From NCBI GenBank assembly GCA_016928955.1, contig JAFGJV010000027.1, positions 1 to 64,000 on the forward strand: a stretch of 64,000 nucleotides of DNA, in the 5' to 3' direction. Of the stretch, positions 2,156 through 11,001 are shown in pieces (position 1 is the stretch's first letter; every line of letters begins with the position of its first letter). The notes beneath the pieces are model-generated. The model had not been told where the DNA came from. It made no database searches and worked only from the letters and a program-made list of their open reading frames with translations. The position numbers were made by a program, and so were the translations under genes. This DNA comes from Spirochaetales bacterium (GTDB lineage: Bacteria > Spirochaetota > Spirochaetia > Treponematales > UBA12059).

Positions 2156-2472
2156 GACTGATGATTATGCGGTCATCACATGGATGAAGAATAGCATTGC
2201 ATCTTCCACAGTAGAACCTCTGCCATATTCGCCATTTTCAACCTCATAGACGCCTCGCCCCTCTCAAAACACATACCAAACACCCCGAGAATCGCTTACA
2301 GGAAGCCATGGTGAGACGAGGAAGGGTTCGGACAGGGAATCATACCAAAGAGCGACAGGATGCGTCTGTGAGCTACTATTCGCGATATTGGCGACCTCAG
2401 AAATTCATGCCATCAAGCATATGTATGTGCATTTTCTCCCTCTAAATGCTAAACTAAACGAAGGAGGATCGC

Positions 2473-2652
2473 ATGAAAAATGTGGACATGAAGCTTGAAG
2501 GCAATATCCTGACCATCAAGGTGGATATCTCCAAAGAGTATGGAAAATCAACTTCTGGTAAGAGCCTCATCATTGCTTCGACAGAAGGCAACGTCTCGGT
2601 TGAGGGCAAAGAAGAAGTGAAGGTGGGTTTGAATATCTACCGGAAGCCCTGA
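2473..2652 (+). CDS. Small conserved hypothetical protein, 59 aa (not in ORF track)
   Basis: AAGGAGG RBS at 2461; MKNVDMKLEGNILTIKVDISKEYGKSTSGKSLIIASTEGNVSVEGKEEVKVGLNIYRKP. Confidence 0.85.
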   Translation: MKNVDMKLEGNILTIKVDISKEYGKSTSGKSLIIASTEGNVSVEGKEEVKVGLNIYRKP

Positions 2653-4711: not shown

Positions 4712-4750
4712 GTTGACTCCTTTTCCGATAGTGGTGCAAGTGGGTGTTCG

Positions 4751-4853
4751 TGGACAGAAAAGACAGAAATTTCTGTCTTTTCAAAACCTTTTTTATTTTG
4801 AAAATCATATAGAATACTTTATCTAGGACAGAAATTTCTGTCTTTTCTGTCCA
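4751..4853. repeat. Putative replication origin: 27-bp inverted repeats holding six GACAGAAA octamers around an AT-rich core
   Basis: 4751-4777 is the exact reverse complement of 4827-4853; 26-bp palindrome at 4757-4782; lies directly downstream of the primase-helicase gene. Confidence 0.8.
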
Positions 4854-4880
4854 TGACCATATATTGATCCATACACCCAG

Positions 4881-7001
4881 CTATGCTACCTGCCGGGCAA
4901 TATGCCATCCCCTTTTCCCGAAATCCTTGTTGTAATCGATTCGGAAGTTCTTTAGACTTTTCCGCATATTCTTCATACGCCTTGTCAGCGATGAGGCGGT
5001 CGTATTGTAAGATTTATTTTTTTCTCGCCACCTCTCAACCAGATCGGAGATGGCAAAGAATCTGTCATTCATATCACCAAGTACATCGTCGAGAAACTCC
5101 TCGAACATCATTCGGTCATCGGCATACTCTTCGTCTTCAGCAGACAATGAAAAATCAAACTCTTCAATCTCGGGATAGAAGGGTCGGAGCATTTTAGCCA
5201 TCGCAACGGACCAACGTGAAAACTTCGCATGCTTCTTCACAGGGACGTCTCTACTAAAATCCACCTCCGCAAGACAAGCCAGAACATCTGCAACTATGTC
5301 TTTCCACTTCGCCTCAAGTTCTATGAATGCTTCGGATATTTCAGCCTTTCTTTCGAGAGAGACATCTCGGCCATCAGTCATCATGATGGTAACTGTCCGA
5401 TTCAGAACATCAGTATTGATTGATTCCCCAGTGTTGAATGTGCATGCATACGTTTTATTGTTCACTACTCTTGAATGCGAGACATACATGATATGCGACG
5501 GTATAGTGATGTCGGTCACTCTGAGCGTGATATTGAGAAGCTGATCGTTTGTAGCATTCTGTATATTGTCTATCAGGACAAACGGATTCTCGAAGGCAAC
5601 AAGACCAGACATCTGCTTTTCATCACTATCGTTCGCCCTGAACTCAAGAGGATCGCGGCCTGTAATACATCGGCATCCCTTCCTTGTGCTGTAGCTCTTT
5701 CCCGAGTTGACTGACGGTGCGATAATCGCAAAAAGAGGCTTCTCTCCGTCGAAAGTCGAATTCATGAAAGAACTGAGTAGCATACTCGCATAACGATACT
5801 GATCTTTTACCGACTCAAGTGTTGCTGTGTTCACGAGCTTCATGAAGAGCCCGTTTTTTTTAGGCTCGATCTGCGAACCTCTATAAAGCGTATCTCTTTG
5901 CATAGTAGGCTCGGGCAAACAGGTTATCCTTCGGTACGCCTCGCAATGTTCCCTCAGAAATACAAGATACTTTGCTTCGGTTATTTCCTTCCCATAAGTA
6001 AAGTCAAGTACAAAGCCGTTCTTTGCGAGGATGAAGTGAAGGTCTTTGGGGTCTGTTATGAAGTAATCTGCCCCTTCCCGGAGAAACATATATTTCCGGC
6101 CTGAAGCGTCTATGAACGAATAGAAAAGGCTCGAAGGTTCTGCCATCTCTTTGGTGTATTCAAGTTCATGTTCTATTGAGACCTGCGTTCTCGTGTTTCC
6201 ATCTTTATCAGGAATCTGACGCTTTATCTTCCGGTAGTTGCGTATTATTTTCTTAGCATCTTCTGGCTTGTATCGCTTCACTGATCGAAGTATGCTGTCT
6301 ACTTCTTTCAAAGAAAGTGGTTCTTCCAAAAGATCGTTTGCCTGATAGAGCATTGGGCCGACATCTTCAAGAGGGTATATTTCAATCCACTTGCATGCGA
6401 GGCGGAATAGTTCCGCGTTCCGACCTCCTCTCGTTATTGACTCTATGCCTTGTCTCGATGAATCAACAGGCATCTTTAGCGATACAACTGGCTCGGCTAA
6501 TAAATCTGAGATCGACTTACCTTTATTCTCAACAATCACAGCATCTTTATTACCAAAAAATAAGCGAGCAATATCGACCACTTTCGGGTCAAAGAAATTA
6601 AATGTAGATTGGAGCTTCCTGAGAAGGTCGCCAAGCTCAACACCACCGACCTCTCTTCCAAGCGGAAAATAGACATGGAAGCGAGGCCGTGCAGATACTG
6701 TTTTTCTCTCATCTACTTTGTCCTTCATGTGATTACGCGAAGTTACGAGATAGTAGTCATATTCATGGAACAAAGCATTGAACCTGTCTTCAGTAATCCA
6801 TTCCTCCTCATTCTCTGTTTCACCGTTGTCGATGTCGCCATATAAGCAGTCGCACGATATGAAGTTCTCAATGGACCTATTGTTGTTGCGGAAGCGGGCC
6901 ATCACATGATCATGTTTCACAGCCTCAGCAAGATCGTGAGTCTCGAAGGGATAAGTCTTGTTTTTTGGCTGATTGATGCTGTTACTATAGTGCAGGGTCA
7001 T
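4881..7001 (-). CDS. AEP-type primase with PriCT-1 domain fused to a P-loop helicase-like domain (replication protein)
   Basis: DCLYGDID, TSRNH and RPRFHVYFPL primase motifs; GGRNAELFRLA...PLSLKEVDSILRS (PriCT-1); APSVNSGKS Walker A and VLIDN Walker B; AAGGAGGT RBS. Confidence 0.85.
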   Translation of the reverse strand: MTLHYSNSINQPKNKTYPFETHDLAEAVKHDHVMARFRNNNRSIENFISCDCLYGDIDNGETENEEEWITEDRFNALFHEYDYYLVTSRNHMKDKVDERKTVSARPRFHVYFPLGREVGGVELGDLLRKLQSTFNFFDPKVVDIARLFFGNKDAVIVENKGKSISDLLAEPVVSLKMPVDSSRQGIESITRGGRNAELFRLACKWIEIYPLEDVGPMLYQANDLLEEPLSLKEVDSILRSVKRYKPEDAKKIIRNYRKIKRQIPDKDGNTRTQVSIEHELEYTKEMAEPSSLFYSFIDASGRKYMFLREGADYFITDPKDLHFILAKNGFVLDFTYGKEITEAKYLVFLREHCEAYRRITCLPEPTMQRDTLYRGSQIEPKKNGLFMKLVNTATLESVKDQYRYASMLLSSFMNSTFDGEKPLFAIIAPSVNSGKSYSTRKGCRCITGRDPLEFRANDSDEKQMSGLVAFENPFVLIDNIQNATNDQLLNITLRVTDITIPSHIMYVSHSRVVNNKTYACTFNTGESINTDVLNRTVTIMMTDGRDVSLERKAEISEAFIELEAKWKDIVADVLACLAEVDFSRDVPVKKHAKFSRWSVAMAKMLRPFYPEIEEFDFSLSAEDEEYADDRMMFEEFLDDVLGDMNDRFFAISDLVERWREKNKSYNTTASSLTRRMKNMRKSLKNFRIDYNKDFGKRGWHIARQVA

Positions 7002-7015
7002 TTTTACCTCCTTAT

Positions 7016-7153
7016 AGAAAAGTCCTTCCTGCCGGACATGGTTGAACCTATTGTGGATGAGAACTCGGAATCATCCACGAATATCCATATCCGGCAGGAA
7101 GGACTTTCCTCACCGATCCGAGTTCATGTAGCACAAAGAATGGGGTTCAACCA
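7016..7153 (-). ncRNA. C4/CI-like structured leader RNA with upstream complementary target sites
   Basis: 18-bp perfect stem 7019-7036/7090-7107; inner stem 7053-7060/7071-7078; loop 7061-7069 complementary to 7117-7125; bulge 7039-7048 complementary to 7144-7153. Confidence 0.65.
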
Positions 7154-7173
7154 CTACAATCAAATATGCTTAT

Positions 7174-7350
7174 TTAGTTGATTGTTCTCGCTCCATTCTC
7201 ATCTTTATTTTCGATTTCCTGTACCAGCAGTTCAGCTATCAGTTGATATAGAAATTTATTTTTCAATGCGGCCTGAATGCGAAGCTGACGAAGCAATGAT
7301 CTTGGAATCTTCATGGTTGTGTATGGATCGGATGTTTTTCTTGTATTCAT
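7174..7350 (-). CDS. Ribbon-helix-helix-like small regulator (58 aa)
   Basis: TTMKIPRSLLRQLRIQAALKNKFLYQLIAELL beta-alpha-alpha pattern; start moved to MNTRK. Confidence 0.65.
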   Translation of the reverse strand: MNTRKTSDPYTTMKIPRSLLRQLRIQAALKNKFLYQLIAELLVQEIENKDENGARTIN

Positions 7351-7464
7351 ATTCTTATCTTTACAACTTTTCCTTAATAATGCGATTTTACCATGAAAAA
7401 GTTTTCGCCTTGTTGTTGTCATCTCTTTTAAATTCTATCTGTTAATGTTGTAATCTATGTATCA

Positions 7465-7538
7465 GTTCAATGGTTGAACACCAGAAGCCATATTCATTGA
7501 TTTGCTGTTCAATGGTTGAACGAGGTGTTCAATGGTTG
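7465..7538. promoter_or_regulatory. Three copies of GTTCAATGGTTG(AAC), candidate operators
   Basis: Copies at 7465-7479, 7507-7521 and 7527-7538; GTTCAA-N3-TTGAAC is palindromic. Confidence 0.6.
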
Positions 7539-7802
7539 TAATGCAAAAAATTTGAACACGAAAAAAGCATACTTAATGATATGAGAATGCAAACCATAAT
7601 CACAATCGTATGCGCCATGCTCGGCCTTGATTACCTCTTCGGCCTCCCGCGCACGGAGGCAGATCGCGCGGAGGGCATCATCGCGATAGTCGTGACGCAG
7701 GGCAGTCTCCTCCTCCATGGCGCGGTATTGGATAAGCCAATCGGGCATCCAGTTGTCGAGAGCGAGGTTGATTCTATCTACTGCGAGTTCAATGGAAGTC
7801 AC
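7509..7802 (-). CDS. Hypothetical protein
   Basis: 97-aa ORF co-oriented with the leftward operon. Confidence 0.45.
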   Translation of the reverse strand: MTSIELAVDRINLALDNWMPDWLIQYRAMEEETALRHDYRDDALRAICLRAREAEEVIKAEHGAYDCDYGLHSHIIKYAFFVFKFFALQPLNTSFNH

Positions 7803-8477: not shown

Positions 8478-8867
8478 CTCGTTCCTCCCCCAATTGGCTC
8501 AAGTATCTCTAAGCCGCCTTCGTGAAACTAATCTTGCTCATAGCCGAAGCGTGAGATAGGAGTGATTTGGCCATACCGCCCAGAACATATGATCTTCGCC
8601 ATCCGCTACCTCCCCGGTGCCAACGCCTCATGGCGTAACAACGCACCTCATGTGAAGAAGGATAGCAGATCGAGAGACTATGTACATGTTCTATTTTCTT
8701 CCTGTTGTAGTATTTATATGTTTTTTATTACCCAGTTACATACAGCTTTCAACAAACGACCTTTTCCTCTTAGCTTTCCTCCAATCAATGGCTGTGCTAA
8801 TCTTTCAAGCGTCAGACTGACTCATGTAGGGCCTCAATCCCAATCACGAAACAAAGGGAATGTATTC

Positions 8868-10496
8868 ATGGTGGTACCCAAAAAGCCTCATGCTCTATTC
8901 GGTTATGCACACTACGACGTAGATGGCAAGATAATCACCGAAATAATCGAAGAACAAGCAAGGGTCATTTCCTCGATCTTTCGTTACTTCATCGATGAGC
9001 GCCTGACATTGAATGCTATCGCGACCAAGCTCAATGCTGATCCTGTCTCTTTAACAGCAATGAGTAGCGAGAAAAATGAACATCGCTTCCATGCCACGAC
9101 TATAGAAAAAATACTTAGACGCCCTGAGTATGGCGGGTATCAGAGAGATACAGATGACGACCTCGTTCCTTCGACGATATTCGAAGGTATCATTTCAGTA
9201 GAAGATTGGTACCATGCCCAATACCTTCTCAACAAAAAATCAAGCAAAAACAAGGGAAGCAAGCGACAAGTTGATCATCCATTGACCGGTATCATTAAAT
9301 GCGCTGAGTATAAAAAGAAATACTATATAAAACCAAAGGCCAACATATATTTACATTCACAGCAAGAGATATGTAAATGCAACAGTCAGAAATCAATACC
9401 AGCAAAGCACAGCGACGAACTACTGTTTTCGATCATTCTGGATTATCTAACACGCCCAGAGTTGCTGAAATACAGACTGCGGCATCATCAGATGTCATGG
9501 TACTTCGCCCATCGTGTGGCAAAAATGACTTACACTGAGCCGCTTACCTTCCCTCTTTCGAGCAAAGCAATCAGCCGTGCAGAAAAGTCGCTCTTGGCAT
9601 GGGATTCTACAATAGAAAAGTCTTCTATTGCATTTTCACGCATTGAAAGCAACTTGGTATTCGAGGCAAGAGGAATGCAATCCATACACGAAGCCATATT
9701 GCCAGAGATTAGTAGCTATACCAAGAATGCGATTCAGAAATGGTTCACTCGAATACCGAAATCAGCAAGGCTCGAACTTCTGGACGATTCGATTGAATCA
9801 ATCGAGCTTCAGGGCCGACGACTAATCATGTCCTTCTTTCAAGACTTGAAGATAACCGTAGCCATCGACTACTTCAAGAATCGATCATCACATTGGGCAA
9901 AAAGAAGAGTAGAAAACTCAAAACTCGGAAGTACCAAGTGGAATATCTTTGAAATGCCAAGTTTCATTTCTCAACACGTTAACAAACTTATCAAGCGCCT
10001 CTGTCATGATGAAGAATCTGCTGGATTGATGGCATCTAATGCTATCTGTACAAATTTCTTGAGTCGTGGGCTTATACCCGCAAACAGAAAGTTTTATTTT
10101 TCGATTAGCGACTATGTGTACATGCAAGATACCAGCATTAAAAAGGATAACATATGGTCATTCAGGTACGGCAACCAAGGCACAGTTTTTATTGAAGCAG
10201 ATGGATCACAAGAGACCGAATCACCAATCCATCGCAATGGGGAACTGATCTCGTTCCGTTTAGGCAATCAAGCCTATTTCAATGCCAAGTTCTTGCACAG
10301 CCTTCCTGAATGGTTCTACGGCCACAACTATGAATACTTTCTTGCTGACAAGCAACGAATCTGCTTCATTGAAGATGACAACAAAATTCTCGCCAAGATT
10401 CTTGGAAGAGGGGGGAAGAAGATTGAAATCGAAACGGCAAGGGCTTTCGAGATTATCATGAATAGCGAAAAGCTGAGATACATTGAGATCGATTAG
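8868..10496 (+). CDS. Large-serine-recombinase-type DNA-binding (Recombinase + Zn-ribbon-like) protein lacking the catalytic domain, with unknown C-terminal region
   Basis: LFGY...EQARVISSIF...TIEKILRRPEYGG...IISVEDW...LTGIIKC; no YxRxS resolvase motif in frame upstream. Confidence 0.7.
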   Translation: MVVPKKPHALFGYAHYDVDGKIITEIIEEQARVISSIFRYFIDERLTLNAIATKLNADPVSLTAMSSEKNEHRFHATTIEKILRRPEYGGYQRDTDDDLVPSTIFEGIISVEDWYHAQYLLNKKSSKNKGSKRQVDHPLTGIIKCAEYKKKYYIKPKANIYLHSQQEICKCNSQKSIPAKHSDELLFSIILDYLTRPELLKYRLRHHQMSWYFAHRVAKMTYTEPLTFPLSSKAISRAEKSLLAWDSTIEKSSIAFSRIESNLVFEARGMQSIHEAILPEISSYTKNAIQKWFTRIPKSARLELLDDSIESIELQGRRLIMSFFQDLKITVAIDYFKNRSSHWAKRRVENSKLGSTKWNIFEMPSFISQHVNKLIKRLCHDEESAGLMASNAICTNFLSRGLIPANRKFYFSISDYVYMQDTSIKKDNIWSFRYGNQGTVFIEADGSQETESPIHRNGELISFRLGNQAYFNAKFLHSLPEWFYGHNYEYFLADKQRICFIEDDNKILAKILGRGGKKIEIETARAFEIIMNSEKLRYIEID

Positions 10497-10572
10497 GGCT
10501 TTGTAGCAGGGAGACTGTCATGTCCCTCATAACGAACCGCAAAGGGTGATGATTGTGGTACCAAGATCATCC

Positions 10573-11001
10573 TTATTGTGGAAGCAGATTCTTACTTTCC
10601 AGCTTCAGTTGCTTCTTTGCCTTACGATAAATTTCAAGTGTTACTATTGGAGTAAGATTCTTCACTCCGACCAGCTTCCCGCGTTGCTCGATATACCCAG
10701 CATAGATTGGCCGAATGAGGGCTGTGATCCGAGCGAAAGAATAGCGATTGTTGCTTGAGTCACGGGCCTTCATCTCGTCGAGCGCGGCCTTAGTCTCGAG
10801 AAGGGTCTTTCCCGCCGCAAGCATCTCGTTGATTGTCTTGATCGCGGGCGCGAAACGCTCGTCCGGTTCGTAATGTCCTCGTACAAGGCGGTAGCCAAAG
10901 AGACGTGACATGAATACGGTCCCGCTGGAATAGTAAGCGCGGACACCGGCCTTACGTTTTTGTTTAGTGATAACATTTTTAAGGGCTTTGATAAATTCCA
11001 T
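10573..11001 (-). CDS. Stand-alone Recombinase-domain protein (142 aa)
   Basis: LFGYR...APAIKTI...LIRPIYAGY...PIVTLEIY; GGAGGA RBS. Confidence 0.75.
   Translation of the reverse strand: MEFIKALKNVITKQKRKAGVRAYYSSGTVFMSRLFGYRLVRGHYEPDERFAPAIKTINEMLAAGKTLLETKAALDEMKARDSSNNRYSFARITALIRPIYAGYIEQRGKLVGVKNLTPIVTLEIYRKAKKQLKLESKNLLPQ

Follow-up and report, generated by a model that had tools for sequence, protein, structure and literature searches.

The stretch of DNA analysed here, called the window, comprises 64,000 nucleotides of a spirochaete genome, of which bases 1 to ~12,590 form an integrated mobile element of low GC content (44%, against 65% in the host). This element ends at a tRNA-Thr beside a tyrosine integrase, and on the other side it runs off the start of the contig. 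It contains two recombinase-domain genes, a multi-HTH gene, a PriCT_1 primase-helicase-like gene, Mrr, and a methylase. In the same host, a 44-bp copy of the tRNA-Thr 3' end follows low-GC DNA at C42:641-684 and is a candidate for the far attachment site. No capsid, structural, or packaging PHROG was detected among 10 window proteins and 27 ORFs of related elements, the window element being cut by the contig start; the satellite-like character given to the element in the original prediction is thus unsupported. Directly ahead of the replication gene, on the minus strand, lies a leader of 140 bases. The features of the locus, in the order in which the minus strand is read, are as follows.

7465-7479, 7507-7521 and 7527-7541, no strand: three palindromic repeats, likely DNA operators
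7174..7350, minus strand: ribbon-helix-helix-like (RHH) gene, 58 aa, which heads the module
7160..7170, minus strand: conserved box just past the RHH stop, a candidate -10 region or operator judging by its position
7139..7155, minus strand: small 5' hairpin with a 5-bp stem and site a in its 7-nt loop (7150-7144)
7144..7153, minus strand: site a, 10 nt, complement of a' (the equivalents have 9 nt in G033 and 8 nt in G029)
7117..7125, minus strand: site b, 9 nt, complement of b', 7 nt ahead of the foot of the long hairpin
7016..7110, minus strand: long unbranched hairpin with a 25-26 bp lower stem, a 3'-side bulge, an 8-bp upper stem and a 10-nt loop, the predicted attenuator/terminator
7061..7069, minus strand: b', in the terminal loop, predicted unpaired
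7039..7048, minus strand: a', made up of the 7-nt bulge and the 3 nt that open the 3' arm of the lower stem
7014..7021, minus strand: U-rich tail, 6 U in 8
7006..7013, minus strand: Shine-Dalgarno sequence (SD), outside the hairpin
4881..7001, minus strand: primase-helicase-like replication gene, 706 aa, with its ATG at 7001 (PriCT_1, E 1.9e-8; PHROG 1883, E 4e-47), taken as the regulated gene

The original prediction had described four short sites in this leader, and the sequence agrees with it at every position: a (7153-7144) is the exact reverse complement of a' (7048-7039) over 10 nt, b (7125-7117) is that of b' (7069-7061) over 9 nt, and the order on the minus strand is nested, a-b...b'-a'. 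The two arms of the long hairpin (7110-7085 and 7041-7016, 26 nt each) are 92% complementary, and its terminal loop has 10 nt (7070-7061). As had been proposed, b' lies in this loop; however, a' is not entirely in the side bulge, which holds seven of its ten nucleotides (7048-7042) while the remaining three are paired in the lower stem. A feature absent from the original prediction is a separate small hairpin (stem 7155-7151/7143-7139) that carries site a in its 7-nt loop, and this loop is the complement of the bulge. The U tail of the window consists of four U followed by C. A 171-nt region around these features folds with a z-score of -6.3, and equal stability was reached in none of 200 shuffles. 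Similarly, 20,000 dinucleotide shuffles of the upstream 66 nt produced two colinear complements of at least 9 nt only twice, and among 754 native 66-nt segments of the element, the leader's own was the only one to give such a pair. A search of Rfam at E <= 10 gave no match to the leader, either in the window or in the related loci L120 and L121.

Two related leaders were identified in the genomes G033 and G029. They lie in related integrative elements of the same spirochaete family, and the three elements have an integrase, a recombinase pair, and cargo in common. FlaA, which is present in all three genomes (the host, G033, and G029) and in none of 14 controls, marks the host and both relatives as spirochaetes, as the original prediction had it for the element. 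The recombinase-domain (PF07508) genes form a convergent pair beside the tyrosine integrase in all three elements (window 8562-11001). A second PF07508 pair opens contig C24 of the same host (G000 C24:97-1814), which suggests that this host may carry a second element of the family. Two further stretches are unusually well conserved: window 2457-2652 and its counterparts L122 14923-15223 and L123 16673-16934 show ~80-85% conservation on both strands, which exceeds that of most genes and possibly marks a site without coding function, for instance a signal for transfer or packaging, and a short, highly conserved stretch precedes the DNA methylase gene at L122 6672-6866 and L123 7591-7797.

In both relatives the layout is kept: RHH stop, conserved box, small hairpin with a, b, long bulged hairpin, U tail, ribosome-binding site, and replication gene, within leaders of 120-145 nt. 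The RHH stop is ~20 nt ahead of a in the three loci, and the spacing from the conserved box to the a loop is exactly 20 nt in each. The distance from b to the foot of the long stem is 5-10 nt, with b' at the tip of the hairpin, and 13-19 nt separate the stem foot from the start codon. The tail has five consecutive U in both relatives, and the SD is outside the stem in 3/3. The original prediction had inferred a minus-strand RNA from G-U pairs; this is borne out in the window, where both stem mismatches are G-U pairs on the minus strand and the hairpin folds at -58.9 kcal/mol against -52.1 on the plus strand, as well as in the set as a whole, with 2, 3, and 3 G-U pairs and a more stable sense strand at every locus.

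The letters of the paired sites have changed while their complementarity has been retained in G033 and G029, the very outcome whose absence had been named beforehand as a refutation. The 7-nt a loops, UUGAACC in the window and CUGGACA and UUGGUAG in the two relatives, differ from one another at 3, 4, and 4 of 7 positions, and each is complementary to its own 3'-side bulge. The cognate duplexes reach -35.2, -33.7, and -21.4 kcal/mol, compared with -10.3 to -20.5 for the six cross pairs. In all three leaders b' is in the terminal loop, with an exact match to b of 9 nt in the window, 6 nt in G033, and 6 nt in G029, and each of the 700-nt stretches around the leaders contains one exact sense copy of a and one of b. 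Across the three leaders 96% of the cells are paired and 16 of 38 consensus pairs have changed on both sides, including three of the five in the stem of the small hairpin (helix 1), although these counts are descriptive only because there are three sequences and the structure was derived from the same three. This pattern identifies, as far as sequence comparison goes, a conserved and uncatalogued RNA element in which a/a' and b/b' covary between elements. Chance, or local duplication with the complementarity as its by-product, is hardly credible as an explanation: short as the matches are, with b reduced to 6 nt in the relatives, a two-site match was reached in only 1, 121, and 128 of 20,000 shuffles for the three leaders, and a, b, a', and b' occupy the same structural position in three diverged sequences.

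The original prediction had placed the switch on a primase. This holds for the window; in both relatives, however, the leader precedes a different gene, whose products of 495 and 511 aa resemble HTH_36/DnaD_N winged-helix initiators (a weak Pfam hit for one protein, and Atlas scores of 0.95-0.96). The leader is therefore portable and not specific to the primase. On its upstream side, the 58-aa gene may be of the ribbon-helix-helix type, as weakly suggested by a protein model whose nearest folds are CopASO, Arc, and CopG, all at E >= 1, and by the match of a relative, P0174, to the Arc-like repressor PHROG 582 (E 1.7e-4). The family to which it belongs comprises 23 proteins, two of them from the window's element, and carriers of the gene are rare: three of 301 genomes of the order, the window's own included, and two of 41 in the family.

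Three or four palindromes lie upstream of the RHH gene in each element (window 7465-7541, L120 ~1290-1390, L121 ~1195-1305). Their GTTCA/TGAAC arms surround a variable 5-nt centre and are conserved across elements. An inverted copy of the conserved box is located ~400-510 nt upstream (7566-7573, plus strand, in the window, with equivalents in L120 and L121, and thus in 3/3 elements); it points away from the RHH gene, with an ATG next to it, and may be a divergent promoter or a second operator. Just past the primase stop, a second long inverted repeat (4745-4859) has 33-nt arms that match at 94%, each arm containing the same 21-nt sequence and an internal palindrome, with an AT-rich spacer between them; it is a candidate origin or terminator.

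These repeats raise the question of whether a and a' act as DNA, namely as half-sites of palindromic operators or iterons, with the hairpin serving as a cruciform or as a single-strand recognition site for the primase. There is a 9-nt overlap in sequence between the window's a/a' and the palindromes at 7465-7479 and 7507-7521, and the second inverted repeat could be placed in the same scheme. However, this overlap is found in the window locus only, since the palindromes of G033 and G029 keep their arms while the a/a' words differ, and a relative in sequencing run X1 alters the palindrome spacer that belongs to the shared 9 nt. The G-U pairs on the sense strand in 3/3 loci, the persistence of the leader ahead of non-primase genes, and the absence of the second repeat after the replication genes of G033 and G029 also argue against such a role. 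The DNA-level reading is largely refuted and highly improbable. The palindromes themselves are likely DNA operators, and their 9-nt overlap with a/a' a coincidence or a sign of local origin.

Searches beyond these three elements brought little. No full-length relative of the primase was found in 100 relatives, 400 genomes of the phylum, or plasmids. Its C-terminal helicase-like half is without a Pfam family and recurs in metagenome proteins fused to varied N-terminal domains (P0023-P0063). Among 13 metagenome or genome loci of distant primase relatives (26-41% identity), none of the seven with upstream DNA, four of them near-identical, had a hairpin ahead of the gene, and an RNA model search gave no leader in any of the 13; the primase-led search for leaders thus failed because the distant relatives lack them. 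At L068-L071, iteron-like 21-nt tandem repeats of variable copy number lie ~250-310 nt ahead of such a distant relative. Of 64 phage loci that share only the primase domain, those listed had mostly coding DNA upstream. BLAST with the leader DNA returned short chance matches only in 400 genomes of the class, phages, and plasmids, and two pattern scans of viral contigs yielded 19 and 16 stretches, none with the fold. Homologues of the RHH protein were absent from viral contigs, plasmids, and phages, and three weak matches in the class (E about 3e-4) were without a leader. RNA model R1 recovered, across 101 genomes, the three leaders on which it had been trained; a de novo hairpin scan recovered both relatives and nothing else in the genome, but its tail filter missed the window's own hairpin, and its negative result for the remaining genome therefore carries little weight. 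Sequencing runs compared with the G033 leader gave no additional one. The closest primase, P0002 (59% identity), may indirectly represent a fourth case, as its called N-terminal extension reads through its leader. Compared with the window, this extension would require at least two base changes in the 7-nt bulge, whereas two suffice for the 23 nt of the 3' arm that follow it.

Folding models of the nascent RNA assumed a 5' end 6 nt past the conserved box, an inferred position that coincides with the foot of the small hairpin. In the free RNA, the a:a' pairing kept a probability of about 1.0 until 10 nt (window) or 17 nt (G033) had been transcribed beyond a', and the barrier to the terminator fold was 41 and 23 kcal/mol, respectively. 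With a and b blocked, the barrier fell to 0.3 kcal/mol in the window and 2.5 in G033, all these values being upper bounds from direct paths. Shuffled 5' parts reached the native barrier in 0-1 of 100 cases for the window and 1-3 of 100 for G033. For G029, nested folding gave no trap in cis: the barrier was 0-6 kcal/mol, matched by 60-100 of 100 shuffles, and a:a' peaked at 0.64. There, a is held in a hairpin of 7-9 bp and would need kissing between loop and bulge, which is outside what the programs model. In each leader there is a resemblance between the small hairpin's 5' arm and the uppermost part of the 5' arm of the terminator, and for this reason the contact between loop and bulge can extend into the terminator's 3' arm. 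In nested folds, cis b:b' pairing was weak or transient in G033 and G029 (<=0.06 in G033). The full-length RNA favoured the terminator fold by 6-23 kcal/mol, so that any read-through must be kinetic.

From the observed layout, complementarity, three-locus covariation, sense-strand G-U pairs, and position between an RHH-like and a replication gene, we propose, with about even confidence, that the leader is a transcription attenuator of the replication gene resembling P4 CI, whose terminated copies act in trans. According to the folding models, a would pair with a' as soon as a' emerges from the polymerase, and so occupy the initial bases of the 3' arm of the terminator; b:b' would form ahead of a:a' in the window. 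With a trapped in this way, the long stem would be unable to zip before the polymerase clears the U tail, and the gene would be read. Were a and b already occupied, the long hairpin would zip almost without a barrier, and transcription would be predicted to stop at ~7016. The stopped RNA of 120-145 nt, or a 5'-trimmed form of 80-95 nt, would show a' in its bulge and b' in its loop, and these could bind the a loop and b of new transcripts. Such positive feedback might allow brief replication by a newly arrived element and then lock it off in the integrated state, and it would also silence incoming elements with an identical 7-nt address. The location of b near the stem foot, with b' at the tip, would favour a partner on another molecule, and the SD outside the stem points to transcription as the controlled step.

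Several observations count against this attenuator. There are only three leaders, all of one family; G029 is without the cis trap, and the exact b match is short in both relatives. A consensus terminator scan called none of the three hairpins, because of its loop rule, and the window's tail is four U and then C. Scans at the assumed 5' end detected no sigma-70 consensus promoter in the three loci, and no second target resembling seqC was found downstream, as an exact copy, in 700 nt around each leader.

The cis folding results would also apply to a counter-transcript attenuator of the pT181/pIP501 type, in which a:a' is the pre-emptor in cis, inhibition comes from an antisense RNA transcribed across a and b on the opposite strand, and the RHH protein takes the role of CopR at the promoter. 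The gene order is that of pIP501, where passages of PMC5703833 describe a small repressor gene, a leader, a terminator-like hairpin with poly-T, and a PriCT_1 initiator; moreover, the a hairpin also folds well as antisense RNA in G033 (-8.1) and G029 (-6.6). However, consensus scans of the three loci, which are weak tools for this purpose, detected no promoter on the opposite strand across a-b, the -10-like hexamers within the hairpin have -35 matches of at most 2/6, and no U run follows the antisense a hairpin. The leader is also short (about 320 nt in pIP501), and the pT181 pre-emptor pairs with the terminator's 5' arm, whereas a pairs here with the bulge and the 3' arm. Finally, a counter-transcript needs no unpaired a' or b', yet bulge and loop keep them so in 3/3. 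We therefore regard it as unlikely and favour feedback by the terminated RNA, on account of the displayed matching segments, the difficulty for b to reach b' in the finished hairpin, the diversifying address, and the lack of an evident antisense promoter.

Because every covarying pair is possible within one molecule and the trap is predicted in two of three loci, the leader might also be a kinetic attenuator that acts purely in cis, with no RNA in trans. The share of read-through would then be set by folding speed, pausing, binding of the RHH or Rep protein, or the ribosome that ends on the RHH gene, whose stop has the same ~20-nt distance to a in 3/3. This appears quite unlikely, as it leaves unexplained both the diversification of the 7-nt address with low cross-pairing and the b:b' match in G033, which hardly forms in nested cis folds.

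The output or the polarity of control may also differ from that proposed: pairing could affect how well the replication mRNA is translated or how stable it is, or the short RNA could activate, as in Gifsy-1, where the terminated short isoform IsrK can activate its long isoform, according to passages of PMC4825925. The stem foot is within reach of a ribosome at the start codon. In addition, metatranscriptome run X3 contains three read-sized identical contigs (5622-5772, 6991-7141, and 7145-7363; depth 2-2.6, unstranded, possibly DNA); that at 6991-7141 spans the hairpin, tail, and start codon and is compatible with read-through molecules, although it shares these reservations. Two of these contigs map to the RHH gene and the leader, and none of the three was counted as support. 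On the other side, the SD is unpaired in the terminator fold in 3/3, the U tail is conserved, and the models shift towards the terminator fold once a and b are blocked, which makes this possibility very unlikely.

Beyond the single locus, the self-terminating attenuator leads to a broader and more tentative proposal, to which we give somewhat less than even confidence: that these leaders belong to an uncatalogued family of RNA immunity switches, each in one piece, carried by integrative elements of spirochaetes. In such a family the terminator would itself be the repressor RNA, a hypervariable 7-nt loop/bulge address would set mutually orthogonal exclusion groups, and the RHH-plus-leader cassette would be swapped as a unit onto unrelated replication genes, be it a primase-helicase or a winged-helix initiator. 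The three natural, poorly cross-pairing variants provide a ready test of action in cis versus trans and of address-based exclusion, and they would be natural orthogonal RNA attenuator parts. In the open-access literature, no description was found of this leader or of the control of replication genes in integrated spirochaete elements.

The logic of the attenuator itself is already known, and the leader, though uncatalogued, can be compared with four systems. In pT181 and pIP501, as passages of PMC5703833 describe them, cis pre-emptor pairing prevents the terminator. The shared features (pT181 RNAI and pIP501 CopR/RNAIII) are a repressor gene, a leader, a terminator-like hairpin with a U tail, and a Rep gene; here, the hairpin and U tail stand just before rep in 3/3, and alternative pairing in cis is predicted in 2/3. 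Their inhibitor, however, is counter-transcribed, from a promoter of a kind that the consensus scans did not find here; the present leader is much shorter, its element is integrated, and its repressor is RHH-like where that of pIP501 is XRE-HTH. Gifsy-1 IsrK is similar in that a short RNA produced by termination works in trans on the longer, read-through version of the transcript to which it belongs (passages of PMC4825925). It activates translation via a downstream target, whereas the leader has no Rfam match to it, its targets are upstream, and its predicted effect is termination.

The original prediction had called the leader C4/CI-like. What stands of this is the exposure of a' and b', which match the upstream a and b; three stems, a second target downstream (as an exact copy), and an Rfam match are lacking, which, with a single rod in place of the stems, places the leader outside C4 and CI in their defined sense. 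With the C4 RNA of P1/P7 it shares two short exposed segments, a' and b', that match two sites in order, a' being the variable specificity word (passages of PMC5320573). C4 (RF01695) has three stems according to the same source, whereas each leader here is one unbranched bulged rod. RNase P cuts C4 at a GGW start, which is present in one of three leaders, and the b' of C4 blocks the ribosome-binding site, with which neither a nor b overlaps here. P4 CI RNA uses loop and bulge bases for pairing. It is processed from the same transcript as its target and causes premature termination of the replication genes (passages of PMC4825925 and PMC3632133). The likeness to CI/seqA/seqC in these sources, a same-strand RNA in the leader with its target upstream and the replication genes of an integrative element behind it, is drawn from the anatomy of all three loci. 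Unlike P4 CI, to which it has no sequence or Rfam match, the leader has a spirochaete host and an RHH gene upstream, and its putative regulator is the terminator hairpin, a short step from the start codon. If true, the proposal would extend the principle of P4 CI outside the Proteobacteria, in a compact form that unites terminator and regulator in a single hairpin immediately ahead of the start codon.
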